Shown: piece after piece, positions 1-32,049 of the stretch
How positions within the stretch are numbered: the first letter of the stretch is position 1
How the letters are laid out: each line of letters begins with the position of its first letter
DNA from: a virus
Lineage: Duplodnaviria; Heunggongvirae; Uroviricota; Caudoviricetes
Virus record (IMG/VR): IMGVR_UViG_2778261417_000008
Location: 1-33,955 of that record
Strand: one strand, 5' to 3'
Length of the DNA stretch: 33,955 nucleotides
Notes under the pieces: model-generated
Told to the model about the DNA's origin: nothing
Seen by the model: only the letters and a program-made list of their open reading frames with translations
Databases searched by the model: none
Program-made: the position numbers and the translations under genes

Positions 1-342
1 TATGCGCGAGGTTACCGACTGCGGCCTGAGTTTTTTAAGTGACGTAAAATCGTGTTGAGGCCAACGCCCATAATGCGTGCAGTTGCCCGGCATCCAACGC
101 CATTCATGGCCATATCAATGATTTTCTGGTGCGTACCGGGCTGAGAGGCGGTGTAAGTGAACTGTAGTTGCCATGTTTTACGGCAGTGAGAGCAGAGATA
201 GCGCTGATGTCCGGCAGTGCTTTTGCCGTTACGCACCACGCCTTCAGTAGCGGAGCAGGAAGGACATCTGATGGAAATGGAAGCCACGCAAGCACCTTAA
301 AATCACCATCATACACTAAATCAGTAAGTTGGCAGCATTACC
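1..342 (-). mobile_element. IS1, partial (runs off the left edge of the window); terminal inverted repeat ends at about 342
   Basis: InsA ORF at 12-287 plus an IS1-type terminus (ggtaatgctgccaacttactgatttagtgtatgatggtg on the minus strand, 304-342). Recognised from memory of IS1. Confidence 0.9.
12..287 (-). CDS. insA: IS1 InsA transposition protein
   Basis: 91-aa translation matches IS1 InsA almost residue for residue (…[41 protein letters not shown]…). Confidence 0.95.
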
Positions 343-1707
343 CGGAGTCTGGATATAGTCTTCGGCTGGCTGGAAGAAATCCTTCGGCAACTGTTTGAAG
401 AAAGATGCTGCATCAGCACCAGCAAACATCCCCATCGCACCAGAAGATTTAACGCGCTCAATAATGTCGCGATATACAGTCTGGAATTTGCCACGAATGA
501 TGGTTGCCCATACATCAAAGGACTGGTTAACCGGCAGAGCGATGTCAAAGGTGTCGGTCGCAAGAGTACGCCAGATCATGATGCGAAGACGCAGCATATC
601 CTGTTCATGAGACAGGTATTCCTTCAGGGTGCGGAACTGTAGGGAACCCAGGTCCAGACCAAATTCACGCTGTGCTTCATACGCCGCCTGTACCGTGTGC
701 TCAGCCGCGATAACGAACTGGCTTGGGAACAGGGTGTATTTCTTCATTTCGTGGTTGATCAGCGGGATCAGCTCAGGAGCGGCTTCAATATTGATTTCCG
801 TCTCAATTGCGATCTCAGTGCCTTTATCCGGCGCTTTGGAGAACGACAGGGCAATCTGACCAATGTTGTAGTTCAGAGAGCAGGTAACAGTGATTTGCTC
901 ACCAGCAGCATTAGTAAACGAGTGAAGTAGGCTGCCGGAACCGTTATCAACAACAGACTTAATACGGTTAACGTAGATGTTAGTGCGACCTTTTCGGATT
1001 GGTACATTCTGGCCTTCGAAGTCTTCCATCTTGAAGGTTGCGGTTTTGCTAGTGCCATCGGAGCTTGCCACCAGCACATAGCGGCGACGTAACTGGCTGT
1101 ACACACCGACGGATTGCATGTCCAGAACATCACCAGCAGCATAAGAACCAAAAGAGGAACCTGCCACGTTAAAGACTTCATAGATGTCGGACTGGTCACG
1201 CGTAACCGGAATGAAGGTACACGCATCAGCGGTAGCTGCCCCCAACTGAACAGGCAGGATCATCGCGAGGAATAAAGGCAGACGCATAACACCGTCAGAA
1301 ACGCTCATCATCTCTGCTGCGACGGATTCCAGCATCGCTTTATTAGTGGCATCCATGCTATTGCGGGTAGACTCAATCAGGCAGTTTTCCAGCGTCTGGT
1401 GGCAGGAGGCCAGAATTTCCGGACGCGGCATAGATTTATGTGCTGCGGCGTAGTCAGCCAGTGCACTTGCCCACGCTGTAGCGATTTGAGCGGTGGCATT
1501 ATCAGAGATACCCGCAAAAATTGGGTCCTTACGTGCAGCTTCAAGGATAGATGCGGCACGCGCGGCATCATCTTTAATGAATTGGTTATCAGTACCGAAC
1601 TGCGCAGTGCTTGCCCAGCCAAGCACTGCTTTAGAGCGTTTTGCGATATCTGCAATACGATTCTGGTATTCGCGTAAGTTACTCAAGTTACTCTTCCTTA
1701 AACACAA
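316..1707 (-). CDS. Hypothetical phage protein, 3' end truncated by the IS1 insertion (last ~8 codons and the stop are read from IS1 sequence); candidate P1 gene-23-like head protein by position only
   Basis: Long ORF whose reading frame crosses the IS1 terminus at 342. Position next to parS only loosely suggests a virion gene. There is no in-frame ATG near the 5' end; a likely start is TTG at about 1686 preceded by AGGAAG. Confidence 0.45.
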   Translation of the reverse strand: MCLRKSNLSNLREYQNRIADIAKRSKAVLGWASTAQFGTDNQFIKDDAARAASILEAARKDPIFAGISDNATAQIATAWASALADYAAAHKSMPRPEILASCHQTLENCLIESTRNSMDATNKAMLESVAAEMMSVSDGVMRLPLFLAMILPVQLGAATADACTFIPVTRDQSDIYEVFNVAGSSFGSYAAGDVLDMQSVGVYSQLRRRYVLVASSDGTSKTATFKMEDFEGQNVPIRKGRTNIYVNRIKSVVDNGSGSLLHSFTNAAGEQITVTCSLNYNIGQIALSFSKAPDKGTEIAIETEINIEAAPELIPLINHEMKKYTLFPSQFVIAAEHTVQAAYEAQREFGLDLGSLQFRTLKEYLSHEQDMLRLRIMIWRTLATDTFDIALPVNQSFDVWATIIRGKFQTVYRDIIERVKSSGAMGMFAGADAASFFKQLPKDFFQPAEDYIQTPGNAANLLI

Positions 1708-1821
1708 GGCACTTGTGTGAATCCCTTTTCGGAAGAGATTTTATTGAAAGTCACTTGTTGACTTTCTCGTGACAAGCAATTTTTTTATTTTTTTCGGGAG
1801 TAGGGGAGGAAGGTAAAATCC

Positions 1822-1910
1822 AAGGTGAAATCGTGGCGATTTCACCTTGAAATTTTAGAGTGATTTACTTTAAAAACAGTAGGTTAATAGTGAAATTTGA
1901 ATGGCGAAAG
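1822..1910 (-). promoter_or_regulatory. parS: parS partition site (centromere): heptamer box A and hexamer box B motifs on two arms around an A/T-rich, IHF-like core
   Basis: GTGAAAT/ATTTCAC heptamers at 1826-1832, 1840-1846, 1891-1897 and TGGCGA (=TCGCCA) hexamers at 1835-1840, 1903-1908, immediately downstream of parB. Confidence 0.8.
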
Positions 1911-1911
1911 T

Positions 1912-2913
1912 TTAAGGCTTCGGCTTTTTATCGAGGCTCTTTCTAAGGATATGCCCAATCATCCTGTCGAGTTCTTCCTGTAGCTCTTTTGAAAGTCGAT
2001 TAAACTCATAAGAAAATGCACGGCCTTTCACGCGCTTCCTTGCAAAGCGATCCTTGTCCTCAAATTTCCATAATTCAGTAACTACGGACTTATCTTTAGA
2101 ACCTTTATCCGTGAGTAGTGAGGCTTCCTTTGTTATCAAGCGCAGGATTTTATTTTTAACTTCATCTTCGGCCATTTCTTCAATGGATAAGATGTCGTTT
2201 ATTTCCGGGGATATGTTTTGAATAAGCTGATCAAACTCTAAATTCTTGTTCCCCATTTCGTCGCCAACAGCACAAAGCGTTTTGTAGTCCGAAAAGGTTA
2301 ATTCCGACTGCACAGGGAAAAGGGCGACTAATTCTTCCGGAGCACTCGCTGCCTGGAGAGCACGCGTGACCTTCGCCTGAGACAGCCCTTCTTTGGCTGC
2401 AATATCCTTCTGACTCATCCCATCATTTTTCATTCGCATCAAACGCAGACCTATTTCTCGAATGCTGTGCTGCAATGCTGTCTGAACGTCTTTCGCTAAA
2501 TTTTGCGCTTCCTGAACGCTGATCTCCTGGTCCGTGACTAAAACCCGCAACCCTACGTTCTCTAAGATGGCAGAAGCTCGACGCCGGGAACCATCCAAAA
2601 TTTCAATTTTCCCTGTAGCCCGTCTAACACCTATTGCAGGGTAAAATTGCTGATGCTTAATAGTGCTTCGGATACTTTTTAATGATTTTGGCGTAAGAGA
2701 TGCCTGGTCACGCCCGTTGTTATGCTGATCAACAAAGGTATCGCTTTCTACCTGGTTTGGAGGTATTACCTCTTCAATAAATGTGGCCTGGCGACCAGTT
2801 GATAACTTGAATACCTGCTCGACTCGATCGCCAGAGGCTGAAGAACTATCAAATCCGCTTAATATTGAAGGATTAAGGGTTCGCCCAATTGTTGGTCTGT
2901 TTTTCTTTGACAT
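1912..2913 (-). CDS. parB: ParB partition protein (P1 type, 333 aa)
   Basis: Length and sequence match P1 ParB as I recall it; sits between parA and parS. Confidence 0.93.
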   Translation of the reverse strand: MSKKNRPTIGRTLNPSILSGFDSSSASGDRVEQVFKLSTGRQATFIEEVIPPNQVESDTFVDQHNNGRDQASLTPKSLKSIRSTIKHQQFYPAIGVRRATGKIEILDGSRRRASAILENVGLRVLVTDQEISVQEAQNLAKDVQTALQHSIREIGLRLMRMKNDGMSQKDIAAKEGLSQAKVTRALQAASAPEELVALFPVQSELTFSDYKTLCAVGDEMGNKNLEFDQLIQNISPEINDILSIEEMAEDEVKNKILRLITKEASLLTDKGSKDKSVVTELWKFEDKDRFARKRVKGRAFSYEFNRLSKELQEELDRMIGHILRKSLDKKPKP

Positions 2914-2929
2914 GGGGGTTTCTTACTCC

Positions 2930-4126
2930 TCAGTTAGATCTGATAAATTCAATACGGTCAAAAACTGCTTTAGCAAAATCTTCCGCGGCAATTCGCGCGT
3001 TCTTCAATGCATCAGCACTACCAACATACGTTGCCGGGTTAGCTGAAATAACAGTGTCAAAAGACTCGCCGCAGCGTTCAAAACCGTCAAGGCGAGGGAG
3101 GACGACATCAAGCATATCCCCACCGAACACTTCTTTAGCCAGGCTATGGCAATACTTATGGTCTGCCTTGTTACTCAACTTGGACATAAAACCAATGTTA
3201 GTCGCAAGCTGGCACTCGCAGCCTTCATCCGAAATGAGTTTCACCAACTCAGGAAGGCGGGCAACGTATTTAAGCGATGAGTGGAAATCAACCGTTGCAG
3301 GCGGCAGAGGTGTAAACAGTATATTGGCCGAGGCCAAAGCATTTTTCAGGAAGGCGTCAAGGTGAGGACCACTATCAACGAGGATAAAGTCATAATCGCT
3401 CTTCAGCTTATCAATCACATTTTCTTTCAGGACTGCATGGATGTTCTGACCCGGTAGATGCTCATTGCACAGCTCTCTCCAATCGGATGCAATAAAGGCA
3501 TCGTCAATCGACGCAGGCATAACGTCAACCCCAGGTACAACAGAAGGAACAATAAACTCCTCTAACAGCTCTTCACGGCTTACATTCTGCAACATAGCCT
3601 GTGCAGATGTTGCGTTTACGATACCAATAGAGTGTTTATGGCTTAAAAACATCGTTGCTGAAGATTGCGGATCAAGGTCAATAACCAGAATCCTTAAATC
3701 TTCCATCAGAAGATGAGGGTGAGCACGCATTGCATGCGCCAGAGAAACCGTCGATACAGTTTTTGACACACCGCCTTTAAGATTGGAGATGAAAATCACA
3801 TACGCTTCGCTGTAGCGATCCCGGTATTTTGGCACTCCGCGATGTTCATATATGTCAATGATGTTCTGAATTGACATCGCATATTTCATTGAAGAGCCAG
3901 CAGGGCGTTTATCGAAAACATAACCCTTTTCTTCCATTTCACTCACGGCATAGTCAACGTTCGCTCGAGTCAGTAGAGGCAATTTTGCCAGTGCCGCTTT
4001 CGCATAGACCTGGTAAAACTCGTTCGCGTGTAGCTCATCCTTTTGCAACTGTACTTGTTCAGTCAGAACATTGAGCATTCTGTTTGCTCTTTGAGCAACC
4101 TTGTGAAGCTGGCTGGAATCACTCAT
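2930..4126 (-). CDS. parA: ParA partition ATPase (P1 type, 398 aa)
   Basis: Deviant Walker A motif (NLKGGVSKT); N-terminal extension typical of type Ia ParA; length 398 aa as in P1. Confidence 0.93.
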   Translation of the reverse strand: MSDSSQLHKVAQRANRMLNVLTEQVQLQKDELHANEFYQVYAKAALAKLPLLTRANVDYAVSEMEEKGYVFDKRPAGSSMKYAMSIQNIIDIYEHRGVPKYRDRYSEAYVIFISNLKGGVSKTVSTVSLAHAMRAHPHLLMEDLRILVIDLDPQSSATMFLSHKHSIGIVNATSAQAMLQNVSREELLEEFIVPSVVPGVDVMPASIDDAFIASDWRELCNEHLPGQNIHAVLKENVIDKLKSDYDFILVDSGPHLDAFLKNALASANILFTPLPPATVDFHSSLKYVARLPELVKLISDEGCECQLATNIGFMSKLSNKADHKYCHSLAKEVFGGDMLDVVLPRLDGFERCGESFDTVISANPATYVGSADALKNARIAAEDFAKAVFDRIEFIRSN

Positions 4127-4141
4127 CGAAAGTCATCCTTT

Positions 4142-4176
4142 ATGCTGTATTTTTGAATTTAATTAAAAATGCTGCA
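4142..4176. promoter_or_regulatory. par operon operator: imperfect inverted repeat upstream of parA
   Basis: atgctgtattttt…aaaaatgctgcat palindrome directly upstream of the parA start. Confidence 0.55.
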
Positions 4177-4264
4177 TAAAATAATAATGTATGCGTAGAT
4201 GCTTGTACATAGCATTCTCTGCATGTTTGGTTCATTTTGCACGATTGAGAGTTACAAGGAGGGC

Positions 4265-4287
4265 ACAAAAAAGCCCCGTTCAGGGGC
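4265..4287 (-). terminator. Rho-independent terminator for the gene at 4295-5104
   Basis: Minus strand reads GCCCC-tgaac-GGGGC followed by TTTTTTGT. Confidence 0.7.
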
Positions 4288-4294
4288 ATCAGTG

Positions 4295-5104
4295 TTATTT
4301 GCTAAGAGCAGCGAATAATCGTTCGAAATCGATAGTATCTATAGCACGCGTAAGCGCCGGAAGTTCAGCCTCAAAGTACCCGTGTCGATCGTAAAAGAAG
4401 GGACCGAAGAGCGAGGCATGTTGGATTCTACTTCGCCCCAGCCCGGACACACAGTTAAGCCCATTACCGGCTAAAAGGCTAAAAAACTTCTCTGGATTAT
4501 CGTGGTAAAGCTGGGAATCAATGGTGGCGGTTAACTCTTCCATAGGGAAGCACACCCGCCCTGTATCCCAGGGATATTTAGTCCGAAGCATAAACATTGC
4601 TTTCAGCAATTCACATTGAGCGCGGATCGCGTCCGGTTCATAGCCAGATATGGAGACATAAGCCACGTCCCTCATTCCTGCGTCATCTTTGAAAGTCACG
4701 ATAGAAGTAACATCCAGCTCTTTTTCGAAAGAGCAAGCAGCATCTACTGGACGCTGAAGTAAATCATTCGACTTAATGCGCTCGAGAATCCCTCCCCACA
4801 TATCATTTAGATATTCGATATGAGCCAAAACCTTATCAAGACACTCTCGTGTAAACCATTCAGTATGCCCGCCACCGGCGCTTTTCTCCCACGGCGCATT
4901 CCAGGGGAAAAAGGTTGCGTGTAAAGCCCGCTCAAGATTAACCATTGCCAAACGCGTACCACGATAGACCCGTGAAAGCGCAAAATCGGGACTCACTTGT
5001 AGCCCTTTAAACCGTGCCAATGGACCACATGAAATGCCGATTTTAAAAGTATCTCCGTTCTCTGGCACCAGAACGTAGAGGTAGTGTTGTTTCTCTTCTT
5101 GCAT
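4295..5104 (-). CDS. T5orf172 / GIY-YIG-like domain protein (N-terminal about 100 aa) with an uncharacterised C-terminal domain
   Basis: N-terminus YLYVL…FKIGIS…GHTEWF resembles the T5orf172 family. Standalone gene with its own terminator, between the incA-like iterons and the par operator. Confidence 0.5.
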   Translation of the reverse strand: MQEEKQHYLYVLVPENGDTFKIGISCGPLARFKGLQVSPDFALSRVYRGTRLAMVNLERALHATFFPWNAPWEKSAGGGHTEWFTRECLDKVLAHIEYLNDMWGGILERIKSNDLLQRPVDAACSFEKELDVTSIVTFKDDAGMRDVAYVSISGYEPDAIRAQCELLKAMFMLRTKYPWDTGRVCFPMEELTATIDSQLYHDNPEKFFSLLAGNGLNCVSGLGRSRIQHASLFGPFFYDRHGYFEAELPALTRAIDTIDFERLFAALSK

Positions 5105-5134
5105 ATCAATACCACTGCTTGATGAGAACCGCGC

Positions 5135-5365
5135 AAATGTTGACTATGCGCGATGTGACTACAGTCAAAAGTTGACTGTAGTCGATTTAACTCCACCAAA
5201 GATCGACTATGTAAGATATTGTCGGGAGAAACGTTGACTATACGCGATGAAATGCCCCTAAAAGCCATCCCAATAGCGACTTGCAGAATATTGACGCCAG
5301 CAAAAATCCACCAGCGTCAACGAATGTCGCCTATAGTCAACTTCTCGCTATCGCATATAGTCAAT
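5135..5365. repeat. incA-like iteron array downstream of repA (about 7-9 copies, both orientations)
   Basis: Repeated GTTGACTAT(A/G)CGCGAT-like units at 5139-5155, 5171-5187, 5201-5217, 5233-5249 and inverted copies near 5305-5360. Confidence 0.75.
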
Positions 5366-5366
5366 A

Positions 5367-6251
5367 TTATGGATTGCGCTTATGGATCTGGAAGCCGATT
5401 TTCCTGCCGTTTTTTATCTCTGAAAATTTAAGATATTCAATAGCTTCCAAATCTTTCATGGCTTTTCTGATAACGCTATTTTGCACGCTAACGGATGATT
5501 TGAGATTAAGCCTCGCTCTAAGGCGCTCAATGCTGACAGGTGCCGGGTTGGCGGGTAGAGCCTCAAAGAATGTATACAGTACCTTGGCCGTCTCTTTGCG
5601 CCCTAGTTTATCCAGCATCTTCAGCTTCAGGATTCGCTTATAGTCAACATAGTAAAGTTCAGATAGCTGTTTCTGCGGCTGGATCTCGATAACATCAAGC
5701 TCGGTATTCAGGCTGCTATATGCCAACAAGTTGACGTTAATGTTATTGAGATGACCTTTTGCCGCCGGGAAGCGGAATTTGACAACTGTCTGCTGAATGC
5801 GTGTCAGAGAGTCATCAATACTTTTACGGAACGCCTTTGAAAGGCGCTTACGTGGATAGCCGCATCGATCGGCAAACTCGGAGAATGGCAGGGTGATTAT
5901 GCCGTCATCATCAGGTGCGTAGTCAAACAACGCGGAGGTTATGCCCACCCACACCTTAAAATCAGTATCCATATCCAGGCGTGGACCATGAATTTCAATT
6001 CCCTCATAGCCTTCCTGCTCAACAATTTTGAGGCTTGATAGTTCTTCGGTTGCGTTCGTTGTGTTTGTAGTAACTGACGATCCGCGACGTAGCGCCACAT
6101 TGGTAGATTTTAAGGTTGGCACAAACACACCTAAGCGCAACAAAGCGATGGGTTGTATAGTGCTGTTGTTATTGGGCTTCAGGCTGTGGATTTCTCCTGT
6201 ATTTCCTGCAACTTCTTCAACGCTAAGGAAGCCTTTACTTTCTTCCGGCAT
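5367..6251 (-). CDS. repA: RepA iteron-binding replication initiator (P1 RepA family, divergent)
   Basis: Shares blocks with P1 RepA (…QPIALLRLGVFVP…, …GPRLDMDTDFKVWVGI…). Likely start is the ATG at 6251 (GGAG 7 nt upstream); the ORF track extends to 6287. Confidence 0.85.
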   Translation of the reverse strand: MPEESKGFLSVEEVAGNTGEIHSLKPNNNSTIQPIALLRLGVFVPTLKSTNVALRRGSSVTTNTTNATEELSSLKIVEQEGYEGIEIHGPRLDMDTDFKVWVGITSALFDYAPDDDGIITLPFSEFADRCGYPRKRLSKAFRKSIDDSLTRIQQTVVKFRFPAAKGHLNNINVNLLAYSSLNTELDVIEIQPQKQLSELYYVDYKRILKLKMLDKLGRKETAKVLYTFFEALPANPAPVSIERLRARLNLKSSVSVQNSVIRKAMKDLEAIEYLKFSEIKNGRKIGFQIHKRNP

Positions 6252-6330
6252 CGCGGTTTCTCCATGTGTGGCGCGGCCTGACGTCAATTTGGATGGCTGT
6301 TATCAACAGCTGTGAATATTCAGACTCTAA

Positions 6331-6433
6331 AATCGCTTACAGTCAATGTTTCTGTCGCGTATAGTCAACAATAAATCGCGTGCAGTCAACAATAAATCGT
6401 GCACAGTCAACATAAAATCGCGTATAGTCAATG
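6331..6433. repeat. incC-like origin iterons: five direct repeats at about 21-bp spacing upstream of repA
   Basis: AATCGCGTATAGTCAAC-like units at 6331-6348, 6354-6371, 6374-6392, 6395-6413, 6416-6433. Confidence 0.85.
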
Positions 6434-6545
6434 TTGATCCCATTTCAGGCCAGAAATGGCGCGGCTTACAGCGATCCGGGATCTTCTTTGGATCTTCCTA
6501 GGTTCTCTTTAGGATCTGTTTATTGGATCTATGCTGTGGATAAGT
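6434..6545. promoter_or_regulatory. Origin-associated GATC cluster (six or more Dam sites) and DnaA box (TTATCCACA, minus orientation, 6533-6541)
   Basis: Dense GATC repeats (tgatccc, cgatccggg, ggatcttc x2, aggatctg, ggatctat) and a consensus DnaA box next to the iterons. Confidence 0.7.
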
Positions 6546-6585
6546 TGAATAAACCGGCCAACATAGCCGGTTGGAAGGAAGGGTA

Positions 6586-6978
6586 TTATTCTACGCTTTC
6601 GATAAGAAGACCATGTTCATAACATTTAAGCTCATCGCCTTCGTACAGGAATTGGTATCCAATACCACCATTTTCATGGACATTAGGGAATAACTCATAA
6701 CTCACTGAAGAGCAAATCACACCAATGCAGCGATCAACGCCTTCTCGTTCTTCAGTGCTGAAAAAATCCTCTTCGGTAAGAACATGAGTACATTGCTCAT
6801 CAGCATAGGTCGGAAATACATGCTCGATGCAATCCGGGTGTTTTAAACCAAGCTGATCGGCAAGCTCGAAAGCATGACGGTATTGTTCAGATCCTGGCTT
6901 GCCAACAGTGATGTGCTCAATTTTGTAGATTGAAGTCGCTTTGTTGATAGTTTGCTTTACTGTTACTTTATCAGACAT
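6586..6978 (-). CDS. Hypothetical Cys-rich protein (130 aa)
   Basis: Clean ORF adjacent to the origin; no family recognised. Confidence 0.45.
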   Translation of the reverse strand: MSDKVTVKQTINKATSIYKIEHITVGKPGSEQYRHAFELADQLGLKHPDCIEHVFPTYADEQCTHVLTEEDFFSTEEREGVDRCIGVICSSVSYELFPNVHENGGIGYQFLYEGDELKCYEHGLLIESVE

Positions 6979-7106
6979 AAAAATCCCTTTTAGTTACCGC
7001 TGATAGCGCGGTTGTAATCATTAACGTTGCGATTCTTCCTGTTAATCCCCATCAGCATCGTTTCTGAACCGCCCCGGGTTTCCTGGAGAGTGTTTTATCT
7101 GTGAAC

Positions 7107-9849
<2,743 letters not shown>

Positions 9850-10267
9850 CGTAAGTAAAATCAGCCACCCACAGCTGGTCAGGTCGTTCTGCCACGAACT
9901 GACGGTTTACGCGGTCGCCTGCGGCAACGGCTTTCCGGCTGATGGTCGTACGGACCTTTTTACCCCGGAGAACACCGGCAAGTCCCATAACCGCCATGAG
10001 ACGTGCCACAGTGCATCTGGCCACTCTGATACCTTCCCGTAACAACTGACGCCAGACTTTACGCACACCGTATACCTTGTGATTTTCATCGTATACGCGC
10101 TGTATCTCTTTCTTCAGCCAGTCATTGCGCTGCGCACGGGCACTGCGTTTATCCGGATGATGTCGCTGTTGCTGACAGTGGTAATACGTTGACGGGGCAA
10201 TATGTAGTTCACTGCATACCGGTCCGACCCCGTACAGCTTACGCAGCTTATCCAGCAGTGGCATCAC
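9850..10267 (-). CDS. IS3-family transposase OrfB, N-terminal exon (upstream of the intron)
   Basis: …QLWVADFTY is the first D of the DDE motif; the ORF-track frame then reads on into intron sequence. Confidence 0.8.
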
Positions 10268-10590
10268 TTTTTCCAGAGGCGGTCGAACTCCGCCTTCGCA
10301 AAATAAGCGGAAGCCTGGCGAAGGATATCGTTACTGCGGCGCAGTTCACGATTTTCACGTTCCAGCTCTTTCAGACGCTGACGTTCAGCGGTGGTGAGCC
10401 CTCCATCACCGCCCCCGGTATCCCGCTCATGCTGGCGAACCCAGACACGCAGAGTCTCCGGCGTACAGCCAATCTTTGGAGCAATGGAACAAATTGTCGC
10501 CCATTGTGAGTCATATTCGCTCTGACTTTCCAGAACCATACGGACTGCCCGTTGACGGACTTCGGGGGAAAAACGAGTATTTTTAGTCAT
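10264..10590 (-). CDS. IS3-family OrfA (HTH/leucine-zipper transposase subunit), IS629-like
   Basis: 108-aa translation [22 protein letters not shown]…[33 protein letters not shown] matches IS629/IS1203 OrfA from memory. Confidence 0.85.
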
Positions 10591-17104: not shown

Positions 17105-20100
17105 CTATATTTTTCCGCCTACGCCTTTAAACTTCTCAATAAACGAGACGATTTTCTGGAAAACTGCCTGTTTTTTCGTTTTATATTGCGGATTTAACGG
17201 ACTAAGTTTTGGTAATGTTTCGTTTAATTCTGTGCCATTTTCGGTGGCATATTCGCGTTTTAAAGACGTGCGAATATAGCGTTTTGCTGCATCTTCATTG
17301 AGATTTTCTTCTTTTATCAATGCTTCTGCTTCACGTTGCTGTTCGCGTTGAGCAAACGTAAAGAATGCGTCAATGATGCTGGCTTTGTCCGGTAAATCAT
17401 CCAGGTTCGTTTGCTGAATAAAATCGACCACCAGGCCCTCTTTAGCACGGTTTCCCAGGCTTGAACGAATTAAGCGTTTGACCTCTTCGATCATTTCGCC
17501 CTTGCCTTTATTTTGTCTGTTGTGTTCGAAAATCAGTCCAAGGATATAATCCAGGTTTATTTCCTGAGACTTCAGCAAATCGACCTCAAAAACTACGTCA
17601 TCCCAGTCAGTGGTTGATTTCTCTTTTTTCTCAGCTTCTTTCTCACGGCGCTGCCAGTCGCGAATATCGTTATAGGCAGAACGATAATCCTGAATCTTGC
17701 GATCAGCAGGGAGACGAATTGTTTGCAATTCAGCGAACTTTTCATCATCCACATAATGTTCTGCTTTGAATTTTTCTACCGCAACAGGATCGCTAAGATC
17801 GATTTGTTGCAGGGCTTTTAGCGTGGCAAATTCATCATAGTTTTGCAGGATGTTCTCGGCACGCAGGTATTCGCCAAACAGTTTAACGAAGTCTTTCTTC
17901 TCTTTTTCACTTTCAATACTGGTAGGGTCAGGGAACCGTTGTTCCAGTTCTGAAACTACTGTCATGAAGCCGCGTTTAGCTTCACCTGTAGCAGCATCAG
18001 TAAAGCCTTCCATATACTCTGTATAACTCTTTTCTAACACCACATTTTTGGTGTTTTTGTCACCAAACAGCGTTATGGCATCAATAGTTGAGCGTTCCAG
18101 ATCCCGGAAAGTGACGATATTACCGAAGGTTTTAGTGGCGTCATAAATGCGGTTGGTGCGGGAAAATGCCTGCATCAGGCCGTGATAACGTAAGTTTTTA
18201 TCGACGAATAGCGTGTTCAATGTTGGAGCATCGAAGCCGGTTAAGAACATCCCCACGACAATTAGCAGATCGATATCCTGATTTTTAACCCGCTGGGCTA
18301 AATCACGATAGTAGTTCTGAAAACCGTTACTGTCGGTGCTAAAGTTAGTTTTAAAATGGCTGTTATATTCACGAATTGCAGCGTCCAGAAACTCTTTAGC
18401 ACTGCTGTCCATTGCGCTGGTATCAAAAGTTTCATCGGAAATTTCACCAATGGCATTTTGTTCTTCATTGGCGGCAAAGGAGAAGATTGTCGCAATACGC
18501 AGCGGTTTATAGGTAGCCGATTTATTAGCGGCTTCTTCTTGTAACCGTTTAAACGTCGCATAATAGGCTTTCGCGGCATCCACGCTGCTCACTGCCAACA
18601 TAGCATTAAAACCTTTTGAGCCAGGGAAGGTACGGTGGGTTTTCTGGCGGAAATTATTCAGAATATATTGCGTGATTTCCTGAATACGCATGGGATGAAG
18701 AAACGCCTGCTGATTTTCAGCCGCACTCAGTTTTTTCTCGTCAGTTTCTGTCTCTAAAGACTTAAACTGTGGCCGCACATCGTTGTAGTCCACCTTGAAT
18801 TTGAGCACTTTTTCGTCACGAATCGCATCGGTAATTACATACGAATGCAATTCACGACCAAATACGCTGGCGGTTGTTTCTGAGCCTAAGGCGTTTTCCG
18901 GGAAAATAGGGGTGCCGGTAAAACCAAACTGATAATAGCGTTTGAATTTCTTCTTCAGGTTTTTCTGCGCTTCTCCAAACTGGCTGCGGTGGCATTCATC
19001 AAATATAAACACCACTTGCTGATTATATACAGGCAGATCGCTTTCTGCTTTCATCAGGTTATTGAGTTTCTGAATAGTAGTGACGATAATTTTGTTATCG
19101 TCCTTATCCAGATTTCGTTTAAGGCCTGCGGTATTTTCCGAGCCGTTGACGCTGTCTGGCGAAAAACGCTGATATTCCTTCATGGTCTGGTAATCGAGGT
19201 CTTTCCTGTCGACCACAAAGAAGACTTTATCAATAAAGTCCAGCTCTGTTGCCAGACGCGCGGCTTTAAAGCTGGTGAGGGTTTTACCAGAACCGGTAGT
19301 GTGCCAGATATACCCACCGCTTTCCGGTTTTGACCAGTTCTTCGCTGTAAAGGAACTCTTAATTTTCCACAGAATGCGCTCGGTGGCGGCAATCTGGTAC
19401 GGTCGCATTACCAGTAGTGTCTGACTGCTGTCAAAAACGCTGTAGTTCACCAGAACATTAAGCAGAGTATGTTTCTGGAAAAAGGTGGCGGTAAAGTCTT
19501 TGAGGTCTTTAATCAGCGTATTGTCTGATTTCGCCCAGTTCATGGTGAAGTCAAAACTGTTTTTATCGCGCTTTGTCGTGTTGGCAAAATAACGGGTATC
19601 AGTGCCGTTGGAAATGACGAACAGCTGCAGATACTTAAACAGGGAATTTTCGCTGTTAAAACTCTCTTTACTGTAACGATGTATCTGGTTGAAAGCCTCA
19701 CGAATCGCCACGCCGCGTTTTTTCAGTTCGATTTGTACCAGCGGTAAGCCATTAACCAGGATAGTTACGTCATAACGGTTAGCGTGAGAACCCGCCTGTT
19801 CAAACTGCTGGATAATCTGCACCTTATTGCGCATGAGATTCTTTTTATCTATCAAATAGATGTTCTCAAGACGCTCGTCATCAAAAATAAAGTCGCAAAT
19901 ATAGTCGATATGGATTTTACGGGTCTTATCCAGAATGCCATCGCTCGGGTTATCCAGATACTGCTCCGTGAAACGCCGCCACTCGCTGTCATTAAACACC
20001 ACACCATTGAGGTTCTGAAGCTGTTCCCGAACATTGGCCAGCATCGCCGACTGTGATTTTACGGATATAAATTCATAGCCCTGATTCCGTAGGTCCTGTA

Positions 20101-20221
20101 TCAGTTCGCGTTCCAGGTCCGATTCGCTCTGGTAGCTGTCGCCTGTTGGCTCAGCTTTGATGTACTTATCAAGAACGATAAAGTTATTGGATTCAGCAAT
20201 GGTGTGTGTCTGATGAGTCAT
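17105..20221 (-). CDS. hsdR: Type I restriction enzyme R subunit (HsdR), type IC / EcoR124-like
   Basis: 1038 aa; helicase motifs ([22 protein letters not shown]); length matches EcoR124 HsdR as I recall it. Confidence 0.9.
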
Positions 20222-20342
20222 AGCGCATCCTTTGTGCCGTCTGGCAAGGGCCGGAAGGGGGGTAATGGTGACTTCCGGCGCGTAAAAAATAGTCTATATA
20301 CTGACCGGGTGTTAAGGTGGTCCGATCGGTAGCAATGATCAA

Positions 20343-21557
20343 TTAATTACTGACAGTTTCAGGTTTCGGGAAACTGAACAGTAAATCACGATAGTACTCG
20401 TATTGTTTCTGGCGCAACTCGATTTCACGCGGAAGACCTTCGGTGATGGAGTTAGTCAGTGTGTCGAATTTGTCGAGTATTTCGACAATTCGTTGTTGTT
20501 CATTGATGTTAGGAACCGGAATTTTAAATGAAAATAATTTTTTACTGTCAATAGAAGCTACGGACCCTCCTGTCTTTTTCGCTGCTCGCAGAATATCACT
20601 CCCCCTAGACCCAATCATATGATAAATATATTTAACCAAGATGTTTTCATGAGGAATGACTGCTTTCATATCTTGATTGAGCGTAGCAGGTACTTTTATT
20701 AATGCACTTGGTAATACTTTATCCAATATGCTTGAGCGAACAACGATTGCAATCGAGTTTGCTGGAATCAGTTTTGTTGACGATTGTAGAACAGCCTCCT
20801 CAGTTATATAGTCTTCCGAAGAGTCTACAAGTGTTCGGCCCATATCTTTCGGGGAAATCCATGGAATGCTTCCATTTTCCCAAAATTCAATTTTATTTTT
20901 TGATGGTGTCCCTCCCCCATACCATTTTCCGATCTCTCCCAAAGTCTTCCACTCAACCTCACCCTCTTTAAAACTCAACAACTGGTCGCGATAGTAGTTG
21001 TACTGTTTTTTACGCATGTTAAGCTCAGCGGTAAGCTCAGCGGTAAGTGCAGTAAATTTATCCAGAATCCGAACGATTTCAGACTGGATGGCAAGGGATT
21101 TTTCCGGATTATCCGGGCAGGGGATTGGGATTTTTTTTTGAGAATAATTACTAATCCATTGGCGTTTATGGTCTCCCTCTGCGAATTCACTTGGTAATGT
21201 ATTGAGCCAATAGTAAACATATTTCAGTAAGGTTTTATTATCATCACATGATGTAACCATTTTCATGGCCGATGATTTTGCCTTAAAGTCAAAATCCACC
21301 CATTTATTAGCGGTGGTGAAATCATCAAAAATTATTACAGGTGCCTTTGATGCCTGATAAATACCATGAGTCTCATTTGTGTATCCAAGAATAAATGTTT
21401 TTCCGGCAGTAAGAACCGGTATGGTATATGTGTCGTGATAATCTTTTGCTTTTACCAAATACTTTGTTGGCTGTTCATATTTGGTTATTTCCCCCAATGG
21501 CAACCACTCAACTTCAACCCCATCCAGCAATTTTTCCAGATAACTCATCTCGCTCAT
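20343..21557 (-). CDS. hsdS: Type I restriction-modification specificity subunit (HsdS), EcoR124-like
   Basis: 404 aa with two target-recognition domains around a central conserved region containing TAELTAEL; 4-nt overlap with hsdM. Confidence 0.9.
21021..21044 (-). repeat. Tandem 12-bp repeat (2 copies, encoding TAEL-TAEL) in the hsdS central spacer region
   Basis: aagctcagcggt aagctcagcggt on the plus strand; the next 12 nt (21045-21056) are a degenerate third unit. Confidence 0.85.
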
Positions 21558-23116
21558 TTCTGCACCTCGCAGCCTTCAATTTCAGCCACAATCGCATCAA
21601 TATCTTTGCGCAACTGGTCGATTTTGCTGACCGTGGTTTTCAGCTCAGCATTCAGCTCAGCAATATCGATAATTTCGCGGTTATCTTTCGCTTCCACATA
21701 GCTGCTCACCGACAGGTTATAGTCATTAGCAACAACGGTCTCAAACGCGACAGATTTCGCCAGATGAGCAACATCTTCCTTGCTGGCAAATACCTGCATA
21801 ATCTGTTCGATATGGGCATCGGTCAGGATATTGTTGTTAGTCTCTTTTTTGAACAGTTCGCTGGCGTCAATAAACTGAACGTTGGTATCCGTTTTATGTT
21901 TGGACAGAACCAGAATGTTTACTGCAATGGTGGTGCCAAAGAACAGGTTCGGTGCCAGTGAAATTACGGTTTCGACATAGTTATTGTCAATCAGATACTG
22001 ACGGATTTTCTGCTCCGCGCCGCCACGGTAAAAAATACCCGGGAAGCAAACAATCGCAGCACGACCTTTGGCAGAAAGATAGTTCAGCGCATGTAATACA
22101 AACGCAAAGTCAGCTTTGGATTTGGGGGCCAGAACGCCAGCCGGGGCAAAACGTTCATCGTTAATCAGCGTCGGGTCATCGCTGCCAATCCATTTCACCG
22201 AATACGGCGGGTTAGAAACGATGGCATCAAACGGTTTTTCATCTCTGAAGTGTGGCTCAGTCAGTGTATTACCCAGCTTGATATCAAACTTGTCGTAGTT
22301 GATGTTGTGCAAAAACATGTTCATACGTGCCAGGTTATAGGTTGTATGGTTGATTTCCTGACCAAAAAAGCCTTCTTCGATGATATGGTCATCAAACTGT
22401 TTTTTAGCCTGCAACAACAGCGAACCGGATCCTGCTGCCGGGTCGTAGATTTTGTTAACGTGGGTCTGCCCGTGCATAGCCAGTTGTGCAATCAGCTTAG
22501 AGACGTGTTGCGGTGTAAAGAACTCGCCGCCTGACTTACCGGCATTCGCCGCATAGTTAGAAATCAGGAACTCATAGGCGTCACCGAACAGGTCAATCTG
22601 ATGTTCGTTGAAGTCACCAAGTTTTAACCCTTCAACCCCTTTCAGAACCGCAGCCAGGCGGGCATTTTTATCTTTAACGGTGTTACCCAGGCGGTTACTG
22701 GTGGTATCGAAATCAGCAAACAAACCTTTGATGTCAGCTTCTGAAGGATAACCGTAAGCAGAACTTTCGATAGCAACGAAGATGCTGTTTAAATCTGCAT
22801 TCAGTCTGTCATTAGTATTTGCTTTCGCAGCTACGTTGCAGAAAAGCTGACTGGGGTAGATGAAGTAGCCTTTAGTTTTGATGGCATCGTCTTTAATGTC
22901 ATCAGTAATTACGCTGTCATCCAGTTTCGCATAACAGATACTGTCATCACCGGCTTCAATATAACTGGAAAAATTTTCGCTGATAAAACGGTAGAAAAGT
23001 GCGCCCAGAACGTATTGCTTAAAATCCCATCCATCGACCGAACCCCTGACATCGTTAGCAATTTGCCAGATTTGACGATGAAGCTCTGCACGTTGTTGAA
23101 TACTTGTCATTTTCAT
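21554..23116 (-). CDS. hsdM: Type I restriction-modification methyltransferase subunit (HsdM), EcoR124-like
   Basis: 520 aa; N6-adenine methyltransferase NPPY-type motif (VSNPPYS) and AdoMet-binding region. Confidence 0.9.
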
Positions 23117-27324: not shown

Positions 27325-27504
27325 TGTTTTTTAACTACCGATGTTACATTGAGCCTGACCTCTTGCGCCTTGAGGCATTTTCGGTTTATGCTTATCAGGC
27401 ACCTCATTAAAACGGGTGCCGGGATTGGCCTCCCGCTTAAGTCTAAGGCGATACAGACGCCGCTCGCGTCTTTTTTTTGTATCGGCGTACACGCACACCT
27501 CTAC

Positions 27505-27580
27505 AATGGTGGGCTGTATGGGGCTACCTTCGGGTAGGCTGGTTACCTTGGACGCCAGTAAGGCCAACTCCGTACAGTCC
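27505..27580 (+). ncRNA. c4: Candidate c4 antisense RNA (immI repressor RNA); boundaries approximate
   Basis: tRNA-like closing stem (ggctgtatgg / ccgtacagtcc) followed by ACCGCC. Internal CCUUGGACG (27545-27553) is complementary, with one G-U, to CGUCUAAGG at the icd ribosome-binding site (27624-27632) and to an upstream copy at 27441-27449. Confidence 0.45.
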
Positions 27581-27643
27581 ACCGCCAGCAAGATTGGTCT
27601 CTTCTGCGGTGGTTACATACCAACGTCTAAGGAGGCTGCCAAT

Positions 27644-27865
27644 ATGGCTACTATCCCTACCCCAACTCATCCTGAATTTATCTGGCGCTTTTACTCCTGC
27701 CAAAAACGTCACTATCACTTCGTTATTGCACCGACAGAAGATGAGGCCCGCTCTCAGCTTCCTGACGCCCCATGTATTTTCTCTGCCCGTTTTTCCACTG
27801 ATTCACGCAATTCTCTCAGTTACTGGTGCCTCCCTGTTAACGCTTCTGCTCAGGAGGGACTATGA
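27644..27865 (+). CDS. icd: Icd (interference with cell division), 73 aa, translationally coupled to ant
   Basis: ATG at 27644 with AAGGAGG upstream; stop overlaps the ant start (ATGA). Confidence 0.6.
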   Translation: MATIPTPTHPEFIWRFYSCQKRHYHFVIAPTEDEARSQLPDAPCIFSARFSTDSRNSLSYWCLPVNASAQEGL

Positions 27866-28980
27866 GAACGTCATTAGTCACCCGTGAAGAGATGATCGAG
27901 GCAATTGAACAGCACACTGCCTGTATCAGTACCAGGGATATACCAGGCGTTATTGCCAACTACTTCATGATCACCAAACAACTTTACCGGAGAAAGGACA
28001 AGAACGCGGTTCACCGTATCCTGTTGTCTGATATCCGCGAATACCTGCTCGAACAGGGTCATCTGAATTACGCAACCGCCGCAGCCGAAGCACGCAAGGA
28101 GGCACACAGAATGAAAGCAACTAACGTTAAATCAGAAAAAATTCATGCACCTTCAGTTCAAGAATCGGAGCTGGTGGTTGTTCAGAATCAGTCTGATGAA
28201 ATTCCCGTTCTGGAATGGCAGGGAGTGCGTGTAGTGACAACCGAGACTCTTGCTAGAGGGTATGGGACAGAAACAATCCGTATTCGCCAAAATCATCATG
28301 AGAACAAAGTACGCTTTGTTGAAGGGAAGCACTTTTTCAAAGTTGAAGGAGAATCATTGCGCGAGTTGAAGCACAGAGTAGCTTTAAACTACTCTGTAAA
28401 AATTGCTCGCAATGTTCGCTCACTCACCCTCTGGACAGAACGCGGCGCAGCCCGCCACGCTAAAATGCTCGAAACCGATCAGGCATGGGCATTCTTTGAA
28501 AAACTGGAAGACAGCTACTTCCGACAAAAAGAACAGCAACCGATCGCAATCCCCCAGACGCTTCCTGAAGCCCTACGCCTGGCTGCCGAACTGGCTGAAC
28601 AAAAGCAACTTCTGGAACAGAAAGCCCACCAGCTAAATCAGCAGCTGGTGGCCGCCGCTCCTAAAGTCGATTTTGCCGACCGGGTATCAGTAGCTAAAGG
28701 GATCCTGATTGGGAATTTTGCAAAGGTTGTTGGACTTAAACAAAACGCGCTGTTTGTCTGGTTACGGGAGAACGGCATCCTGATAGCGTCCGGTGGACGT
28801 AAAAATGTGCCGTTCCAGCAGTACATCAACGCGGGGTATTTCACGGTGAAAGAAGTGGTGCTGGATGATGAAGATGGCTACCAGATACGGTTGACGCCTC
28901 AATTAACGGGTAAAGGCCAGCAGTGGTTGACGCGTAAACTGCTCGATGCTGGCTTGTTAAAACCGGTGGCGGCTGAATAA
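27862..28980 (+). CDS. ant: Antirepressor Ant (Ant1, 372 aa; an in-frame internal start near codon 84 would give Ant2)
   Basis: ORF6N/Bro-N-like N-terminal region and KilA-C/ANT-type C-terminal domain; sizes fit the reported 42 and 32 kDa P1 Ant1/Ant2. Confidence 0.7.
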   Translation: MRTSLVTREEMIEAIEQHTACISTRDIPGVIANYFMITKQLYRRKDKNAVHRILLSDIREYLLEQGHLNYATAAAEARKEAHRMKATNVKSEKIHAPSVQESELVVVQNQSDEIPVLEWQGVRVVTTETLARGYGTETIRIRQNHHENKVRFVEGKHFFKVEGESLRELKHRVALNYSVKIARNVRSLTLWTERGAARHAKMLETDQAWAFFEKLEDSYFRQKEQQPIAIPQTLPEALRLAAELAEQKQLLEQKAHQLNQQLVAAAPKVDFADRVSVAKGILIGNFAKVVGLKQNALFVWLRENGILIASGGRKNVPFQQYINAGYFTVKEVVLDDEDGYQIRLTPQLTGKGQQWLTRKLLDAGLLKPVAAE

Positions 28981-31017: not shown

Positions 31018-32049
31018 ATGTCCAATTTACTGACCGTACACCAAAATTTGCCTGCATTACCGGTCGATGCAACGAGTGATGAGGTTCGCAAGAACCTGAT
31101 GGACATGTTCAGGGATCGCCAGGCGTTTTCTGAGCATACCTGGAAAATGCTTCTGTCCGTTTGCCGGTCGTGGGCGGCATGGTGCAAGTTGAATAACCGG
31201 AAATGGTTTCCCGCAGAACCTGAAGATGTTCGCGATTATCTTCTATATCTTCAGGCGCGCGGTCTGGCAGTAAAAACTATCCAGCAACATTTGGGCCAGC
31301 TAAACATGCTTCATCGTCGGTCCGGGCTGCCACGACCAAGTGACAGCAATGCTGTTTCACTGGTCATGCGACGGATCCGAAAAGAAAACGTTGATGCCGG
31401 TGAGCGTGCAAAACAGGCGCTGGCGTTCGAACGCACTGATTTCGACCTGGTTCGTTCACTCATGGAAAATAGTGAGCGCTGCCAGGATATACGTAATCTG
31501 GCATTTCTGGGGATTGCTTATAACACCCTGTTACGTATAGCCGAAATTTCCAGGATCAGGGTTAAAGATATCTCACGTACTGACGGTGGGAGAATGTTAA
31601 TCCATATTGGCAGAACGAAAACGCTGGTTAGCACCGCTGGTGTAGAGAAGGCACTTAGCCTAGGGGTAACTAAACTGGTTGAGCGATGGATTTCTGTCTC
31701 TGGTGTAGCTGATGATCCGAATAACTACCTGTTTTGCCGCGTCAGAAAAAATGGTGTTGCCGCGCCATCATCCACCAGCCAGCTATCAACTCGCGCCCTG
31801 GAAGGGATTTTTGAAGCAACTCATCGATTGATTTACGGCGCTAAGGATGACTCTGGTCAGAGATACCTGGCCTGGTCTGGACACAGTGCCCGTGTCGGAG
31901 CCGCGCGAGATATGGCCCGCGCCGGAGTTTCAATACCGGAGATCATGCAAGCTGGTGGCTGGACCAACGTAAATATTGTCATGAACTATATCCGTAACCT
32001 GGATAGTGAAACAGGGGCAATGGTGCGCCTGCTGGAAGATGGCGATTAG
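31018..32049 (+). CDS. cre: Cre tyrosine site-specific recombinase (343 aa)
   Basis: Translation matches Cre (MSNLLTVHQNLPALPVDATSDEVRKNLMDMFRDRQAFSEHTWKMLLSVCRSWAAWCKL…), with catalytic R-H-R-Y region at the C-terminus. Confidence 0.98.
   Translation: MSNLLTVHQNLPALPVDATSDEVRKNLMDMFRDRQAFSEHTWKMLLSVCRSWAAWCKLNNRKWFPAEPEDVRDYLLYLQARGLAVKTIQQHLGQLNMLHRRSGLPRPSDSNAVSLVMRRIRKENVDAGERAKQALAFERTDFDLVRSLMENSERCQDIRNLAFLGIAYNTLLRIAEISRIRVKDISRTDGGRMLIHIGRTKTLVSTAGVEKALSLGVTKLVERWISVSGVADDPNNYLFCRVRKNGVAAPSSTSQLSTRALEGIFEATHRLIYGAKDDSGQRYLAWSGHSARVGAARDMARAGVSIPEIMQAGGWTNVNIVMNYIRNLDSETGAMVRLLEDGD

Follow-up and report, generated by a model that had tools for sequence, protein, structure and literature searches.

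What is a predicted nuclease gene doing in the short interval between the replication and partition modules of a P1-like phage-plasmid? The question is raised by IMG/VR record IMGVR_UViG_2778261417_000008, a stretch of 33,955 nucleotides (the whole of it is referred to here as the window) that is part of a P1-like phage-plasmid. Positions 343-7066 are 98.6% identical to phage RCS47, and throughout this stretch the genes parB, parA, a 269-amino-acid (aa) open reading frame (ORF), repA and upfA lie on the minus strand. A preliminary description, based on the letters of the sequence, had picked out the 269-aa ORF as a standalone T5orf172-like gene, and proposed that it was acquired cargo in a spot critical for maintenance. 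Based on its context, distribution and variation, the gene is a fixed part of a "p0111"-type cassette, which replaces the IncY repA-incA segment of P1 between upfA/oriR and the par promoter, Ppar.

The ORF is intact and runs from an ATG at 5104 to 4295 on the minus strand; the span first given for it, 4265-5125, brackets both the ORF and its terminator. The encoded protein is 100% identical to the commonest variant of the family (P0001, which represents a cluster of 1241 members), and the GC content of the gene is not distinct from that of its flanks. The Pfam profile T5orf172 (PF10544, GIY-YIG clan) matches aa 8-85 (positions 4850-5083) with an E-value of 4.7e-6 and 27.5 bits against a gathering score of 20, and the match spans profile positions 2-87 of 101. 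PHROG 2876 matches the protein from end to end, indicating that this family has already been catalogued from P1-like phages. There was no match to the protein in NCBIfam, and a sequence search of the PDB with a two-sequence profile gave only a marginal match, to the GIY-YIG protein 1ywl.

The second sequence in that profile is a homologue from a divergent P1-like contig (L004, see below), which also exceeds the PF10544 threshold (30.8 bits). When the two homologues were aligned with two T5orf172 endonucleases of Vibrio phages, Y8, Y10, K21, G23, R31 and E82 were found to be invariant. The core motif residues Y-x-Y and K-x-G are present in the 269-aa protein, as are the putative catalytic Arg and Glu (roles as described in PMC8263062), and the motifs quoted in the preliminary description align with the invariant residues. 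The N-terminal nuclease domain (aa 1-105, 4790-5104, minus strand) has its nearest phage relatives in the Vibrio-phage enzymes, at 33-35% identity; there T5orf172 is found at the C-terminus of proteins of 413-430 aa, whereas here it is N-terminal. Judging from these residues, the gene product is probably an active DNA endonuclease of the T5orf172 type (GIY-YIG superfamily).

The remaining 164 residues (aa 106-269, 4298-4789, minus strand) form an orphan domain, as had been supposed. The C-terminal half of either homologue has no Pfam match even at an E-value of 10, and a phmmer search of 1.84 billion representative proteins returned only the L004 relative and fragments of the protein itself, and no Rep protein. 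The domain is acidic in both homologues (isoelectric point 5.1), and reading its sequence reveals no CxxC zinc-finger motif. The structure prediction that the preliminary description had called for, run with AlphaFold2 on the two-sequence alignment, yielded no more than a winged-helix-like core at low confidence (predicted local distance difference test, pLDDT, 53.6 for the full protein and 52.2 for the C-terminal domain; predicted template modelling score 0.54). Rep-type proteins were among the top Foldseek matches in the PDB and BFVD, none of them significant, and because of the low confidence of the models these fold matches are taken as hints only. A winged-helix domain, possibly Rep-like, is thus a lead from modelling. 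That the domain might be a copy of the neighbouring RepA or of P1 RepA was considered and rejected at the sequence level, since hhalign against the RepA family gave a probability of 0.1%.

The same evidence bears on one possible function. The ICP1 nuclease Odn acts on the replication origin of PLE, and so provides a precedent for an origin-directed nuclease (PMC8263062). By analogy, the C-terminal winged helix could be a highly diverged Rep-type iteron binder that guides the nuclease to the origin of a rival plasmid or satellite. We consider this improbable. Odn itself is 42% identical to the RepA of its target, whereas the domain described here resembles neither the neighbouring RepA family nor any Rep among the 1.84 billion proteins; homology to a Rep initiator is hinted at on the level of fold, by models of low confidence, and the winged helix is a very common fold. 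Furthermore, the domain is acidic, and the order of the two domains is the reverse of that in Odn.

The limits of the cassette are evident from alignment with P1. Identity to P1 stops at approximately 4226/4227, just past the -35 element of Ppar, and resumes within oriR at approximately 6440-6470. To the left of this segment, the par promoter/operator (4127-4226, minus strand) is identical to that of phage P1, based on the alignment and on the P1 annotation of the ParA operator and Ppar, and is followed by parA (2930-4126, minus strand) and parB (1912-2913, minus strand), whose products are 99.7% and 100% identical to P1 ParA and ParB, respectively. To the right, similarity to P1 oriR is regained in the GATC-rich part of the origin (6440-6585), beyond which lies the upfA ORF (6586-6978, minus strand). 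Between these boundaries is a repA gene of the p0111 type (5367-6251, minus strand), encoding a Rep_3-family protein of 294 aa with Rep3_N and Rep3_C domains, when counted from the ATG; the ORF extends to 6287 from a TTG, and in relatives repA is annotated as 885 nt long. Window RepA is 42% identical to P1 RepA.

The window contains 12 copies of the iteron motif TTGACTRTASKCGA, where 1.0 would be expected by chance. Five copies with 21-bp spacing form an incC-like array at the origin (6333-6431, minus strand), which probably includes the repA promoter PrepA, six copies in both orientations form an incA-like array downstream of repA (5140-5364), and one further copy lies within repA. The locus thus contains the Rep_3 initiator, the five upstream and six downstream iterons, and the adjoining P1-type parAB that characterize a P1-type iteron replicon. 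P1 has 190 bp, and no gene, between the Ppar -35 element and its first incA iteron; in the window, this is where the nuclease gene (810 bp) and a terminator are found. Between the gene and the left limit of the exchanged cassette there are 47 bp, and the position of the gene between the incA-like iterons and the par operator is as first described. So is the terminator, an intrinsic-terminator-like hairpin and T-run directly 3' of the gene (4263-4287, minus strand), in which the hairpin GCCCC-TGAAC-GGGGC, then TTTTTTGTGC, is found at 4287-4273, 7 nt past the stop codon. The p0111 cassette consists of the oriR iterons, repA, the incA-like iterons, the nuclease gene and the terminator. No RNA family in Rfam matched the region 4100-6600. 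Right where homology to P1 breaks off, between the terminator and Ppar, 31 nt (4223-4253) show 71% complementarity to part of the origin iterons (6388-6418); they could be what is left of a degenerate iteron, or the match could be due to chance.

The distribution of the gene follows that of the cassette. Among the plasmids of PLSDB, the nuclease gene was detected in 401 records and the p0111 rep module (repA) in 408, 396 of them at 95% identity or more. Of 5,426 complete Escherichia coli genomes, 412 (~8%) have the nuclease gene, 415 p0111 repA and 359 IncY repA; one or other P1-like repA type is present in ~14% of these genomes, roughly half of which have the nuclease gene. At all 48 loci that were fetched with their flanks, p0111 repA adjoins the nuclease gene. 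Thus, the gene is almost perfectly linked to the p0111 cassette. It is not a constant of P1-like replicons, a possibility that the preliminary description had set against its own idea of acquired cargo: IncY P1 elements lack the gene, both those with P1-type par and those with P7-type par. A related replicon is found on NZ_CP085065, a phage-plasmid that is not P1-like, where positions 4560-5950 encode a RepA with 85% identity and the same two-orientation iteron array, without the nuclease gene and without a par operon. The presence of related RepA and iterons on this element indicates that the replicon cassette has moved between unrelated phage-plasmid backbones, and absence of the nuclease gene both here and from IncY elements indicates that the gene is an accessory of the replicon type, not an intrinsic component of the replicon family. 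To this extent the notion of acquired cargo holds, but the gene is neither recent nor sporadic, being linked to the whole p0111 cassette.

Two IncY P1-like plasmids with P7-type parAB (L054 and L055) have only ~115 bp between parA and incA, at about 3885-4001. Their match to P1 stops exactly at the edge of incA, and therefore the rep and par modules reassort at this point independently of the nuclease gene. Outside complete plasmids and E. coli genomes, single-sequence and profile searches of 5.8 billion proteins recovered only the same family, with five entries of which one was informative, and a scan of the GTDB genome collection found one near-identical locus. A tblastn search of plasmids revealed no mid-range homologues of the nuclease, and the L004-type allele is not present in PLSDB. 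A truncated copy of 184 aa (P0022) is annotated on a 173-kb plasmid of Edwardsiella ictaluri, which suggests that the p0111 cassette occurs outside Escherichia, Salmonella, Shigella and Klebsiella.

The one informative relative provides a measure of age. L004 is a divergent P1-like contig of 95.7 kb, on which a homologue of the nuclease gene (P0004) occupies the same slot between repA and parA. The two proteins are 44% identical overall, with ~62% identity in the nuclease domain (counted from invariant alignment columns) and 33% in the C-terminal part. Their neighbours are far better conserved, at 84% identity for RepA, 89% for ParA and 80% for the capsid protein. A recent insertion of the gene into a P1 replicon was considered and rejected, given that the whole cassette differs (42% identity of RepA) and that the L004 homologue is found in the same slot. 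The nuclease gene is instead an old, fixed and fast-evolving component of the p0111 cassette in P1-like elements. Conservation of the full-length reading frame and of the catalytic residues at 44% identity argues for long-term purifying selection on the nuclease domain.

Within the p0111 population, selection on the gene appears to be weak. The ratio of nonsynonymous to synonymous polymorphism (pN/pS) was determined from 46 gap-free copies, comprising 31 nucleotide alleles and 26 protein variants. The nuclease gene has 41 nonsynonymous (3 of them nonsense) and 32 synonymous polymorphisms, giving a pN/pS of 0.37. The corresponding values are 1 nonsynonymous and 74 synonymous for parA (pN/pS 0.004), 4 and 49 for repA (0.024), and 23 and 85 for parB (0.077), and the nuclease gene differs from each of its neighbours with a Fisher p from 3e-6 to 3e-15. 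Its synonymous diversity is not raised, and hence the excess is specific to amino-acid changes. The ratio of nonsynonymous to synonymous divergence (dN/dS) between pairs of copies is ~0.29, and one pair shows 9 nonsynonymous differences and 0 synonymous ones. None of the 38 missense variants falls on a putative catalytic residue.

Intact copies are accompanied by a considerable number of broken ones. The gene is disrupted in 9 of the 48 loci (approximately 1 in 5), as a result of at least five independent events; three of the disrupting alleles are stop codons, at Q228 (in SJ46), S112 and W68, while a plasmid of E. albertii has a 2-bp frameshift and a further allele combines a 1.8-kb insertion with a deletion. 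Many other truncated forms, on long contigs, are present in the protein clusters. Repeated knock-out and weak constraint indicate that the gene is dispensable for plasmid maintenance, and the data favour a conflict-type or selfish nuclease over a maintenance function. The high pN/pS and the many independent nonsense, frameshift and insertion alleles, together with the lack of a recognisable promoter of its own (see below), might also mean that the gene is a decaying passenger, whose product once served in homing or defence as a nuclease, and which is carried along by a successful cassette and is now functionless. This is doubtful, because ~80% of the sampled copies are intact, pN/pS is still below 1, and the full frame and all catalytic residues of the L004 homologue at 44% identity require purifying selection over a long period.

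How the gene is expressed is suggested by its surroundings. The last incA-like iteron is ~35 nt upstream of the nuclease ATG, and both the iteron and the short leader are conserved in L004. No convincing sigma-70 promoter was found between the incA-like iterons and the ATG, and no terminator is predicted between repA and the nuclease gene. Since the two genes are on the same strand without an intervening terminator, the "standalone" gene, which does possess a terminator, may be the second gene of a repA transcript. Read-through from the RepA-autoregulated promoter, with low expression in the plasmid state, would be the simplest arrangement in keeping with the sequence. There is no C1 operator within 6 kb of the nuclease gene; ten C1-operator-like sites are scattered in the window from 11 kb onwards.

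Such an arrangement would also suit a domesticated accessory that binds DNA or protein, and that tunes copy number, the handcuffing of RepA at the incA-like iterons, or par expression. A precedent is CapR of PLE, which is a domesticated T5orf172 protein (PMC8096241, PMC10448857). The gene directly follows the last incA-like iteron, in a layout that is kept in L004, it is probably co-transcribed with repA, and it is linked near-perfectly to p0111 repA in P1-like elements. Nevertheless, we regard a role of this kind as very unlikely: the putative catalytic residues have been retained, RepA has 84% identity between the two lineages and the iterons are well conserved, yet the nuclease has only 44% (33% in the C-terminal part), about 1 in 5 copies are knocked out in plasmids that persist, and the related replicon of NZ_CP085065 works without the gene.

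Free-standing GIY-YIG homing endonucleases are known from phages, the T4 Seg proteins and I-TevI being examples, and the size of the 269-aa protein and its N-terminal nuclease recall the layout of these enzymes. The reading that we rank first, tentatively, is that the nuclease is selfish or competitive, acts in the manner of a free-standing homing endonuclease, and favours its own cassette. It is ranked first because of the kinship with T5orf172 proteins of Vibrio phages, the slot at the edge of an exchanged module, the variable presence of the gene and its frequent decay. The T5orf172 endonucleases of ICP1 and Vibrio phages are regarded as putative homing enzymes, for which "HEG islands" of homing endonuclease genes (HEGs) and a list of signatures have been reported, and nucleases at the boundaries of genetic exchange are a described pattern (PMC10448857). 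The degeneration typical of HEGs is evident here in at least five independent disruptions among 48 loci, in the truncated forms, and in the high pN/pS.

If so, the nuclease would be made in the plasmid state, probably off the repA transcript, and would cut related P1-like elements that carry the IncY cassette, presumably at a site that its own cassette lacks. The conserved sequences on either side of the cassette (parA and oriR/upfA) might then serve to repair the break, or the rival might simply disappear. Repair from the shared flanks would copy the whole p0111 cassette, and conversion and loss alike should favour inheritance of the cassette that bears the nuclease. The stronger version, in which the gene is a drive element for the entire replication cassette that cuts IncY, whereupon the rival is either converted to p0111 or destroyed, is unlikely. 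If true, it would maintain the ~53:47 replicon polymorphism of P1-like phage-plasmids, and would constitute nuclease-based incompatibility or replicon replacement, which has not been described for plasmids.

Several observations weigh against a homing-type nuclease. The mobility expected of a HEG is not evident: the gene is confined to one locus and never occurs with IncY repA, and no other loci or paralogues were found in the plasmid, phage, genome, IMG/VR and protein collections, where it is seen solely at this position in P1-like elements. Among P1-like backbones it is present or absent between flanks that are >99% identical, but the replicon as a whole is exchanged along with it, which confounds this difference, and a clean empty site was not found. 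Classical GIY-YIG homing enzymes have basic DNA-binding domains, whereas the C-terminal part of the 269-aa protein is acidic; on reading the sequence, the third helix of the modelled winged-helix-like core has few basic residues, and confidence in the structure models is low (pLDDT 52-54). In the T5orf172 homing enzymes of PMC10448857 the domains come in the opposite order, and zinc-finger modules bind the DNA. Finally, no target site can be derived from the sequence, and IncY has not been swept away.

Another reading is single-gene defence against phages, in which the acidic C-terminal domain senses a phage component and frees the N-terminal nuclease, so that carrier cells are protected by abortive infection or degradation of phage DNA. 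The C-terminal domain is unlike a basic DNA-binding module and fits a sensory or regulatory role, and fast divergence, elevated pN/pS and frequent loss are common for defence genes. Expression in the plasmid or lysogenic state is probable, given that no C1 operator is nearby, and the element holds other defence genes, for example a type I restriction-modification system. On the other hand, the nuclease did not match any defence model of PADLOC-DB v2 at E-values up to 1. The gene lies outside defence islands and known variable cargo regions and is tied strictly to one cassette, and its family is confined to P1-like phage-plasmids, whereas defence genes usually spread over many types of element. 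Overall, we consider anti-phage defence to be unlikely. A function in defence, exclusion or competition, as originally proposed, is only plausible.

The existence of the gene was already known, and its product is named "GIY-YIG nuclease family protein" in RefSeq. JL22, SJ46 and RCS47 match this region of the window at 98.7-99.0% and carry the same gene, which appears as "gp57 / unknown protein" in JL22; the "2 orfs inserted between repA and parA" of pSvP1 are, from their position, probably the same gene (PMC9603915, PMC6906374). Both reports record its presence together with p0111 repA, and neither includes a function, a population analysis or a comparison of homologues. No functional study of the gene was found in the literature. 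The strict linkage to the cassette, the homologue in the same slot of L004, the pattern of weak constraint and pseudogenes, and the reversed architecture with an orphan and possibly winged-helix domain are not in the published descriptions that were found.

P1-like phage-plasmids are common carriers of resistance genes, and the nuclease gene lies inside the replication-partition region that decides which plasmids coexist. Should the nuclease attack rival replicons or drive their conversion, it would represent a new kind of plasmid competition, and would explain why two replicon types are found on one phage backbone. Should it be a defence gene, it would represent a new single-protein system with an uncharacterised sensor domain. 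In either case it is an inexpensive and well-defined experimental target, with one gene, one putative catalytic glutamate, and natural knock-out alleles at hand.

Other features of the window are as follows. At its left end (1-1707), the major capsid gene 23 (ORF 316-1707, minus strand) is short of approximately its last 119 codons and is abutted by the insertion sequence (IS) IS1 (InsA, 12-287), with identity to RCS47 starting at 343; the element has probably lost its function as a phage and persists solely in plasmid form. Beside upfA, an IS3-family element split by a group II intron (7107-10309) takes the place of the mlp/ppfA/upfB neighbourhood. The IS3 parts comprise an rve domain (7107-7553), an HTH_21 domain (9785-10267) and an ALIL frameshift pseudoknot (10193-10309), and those of the intron an Rfam Intron_gpII match (7580-7666) and a reverse transcriptase/maturase ORF (7670-9193). 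A complete type I restriction-modification cargo with an EcoR124-type HsdR (hsdR, hsdS and hsdM, minus strand) occupies 17105-23116. The immI region of P1 is represented at 27399-28980 by an isrK-like RNA (27399-27476), the C4 antisense RNA (27502-27589) and ant (27862-28980), and a Cre-like tyrosine recombinase is encoded at 31018-32049.

Comparison with known systems places the locus between several of them. The replicon has the same gene order as that of P1 (oriR/incC - repA - incA - Ppar parA parB parS), with the same iteron logic, a homologous RepA, matching par genes and operator, and partial conservation of the GATC-rich part of the origin; it differs in that P1 has no gene between incA and Ppar, where the window has the nuclease gene and its terminator. 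With Odn (ICP1 Gp88) and its coliphage analogues, the 269-aa protein shares a T5orf172 nuclease joined to a second domain, for which the model is an initiator-like winged helix of low confidence. Both are accessory, conflict-type genes, and the Odn relative gp5 is frameshifted in many isolates, as is the window gene. Unlike Odn, the protein has no sequence similarity to Rep, its domain order is reversed, and it is encoded in a replicon and not in a lytic phage (PMC8263062, PMC10448857). The HEGs of ICP1 and Vibrio phages have in common with the window gene the T5orf172 domain, an intergenic slot by essential genes at a boundary of exchange, variable presence (here confounded with the exchange of the replicon), and frameshift or nonsense alleles. 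In contrast to these HEGs, the window gene is restricted to a single locus without paralogues, its C-terminal part is an acidic orphan lacking zinc-finger or known DNA-binding motifs, its nuclease domain is N-terminal where that of the ICP1 type is C-terminal, and it resides in the maintenance region of a plasmid instead of a lytic-phage gene cluster.

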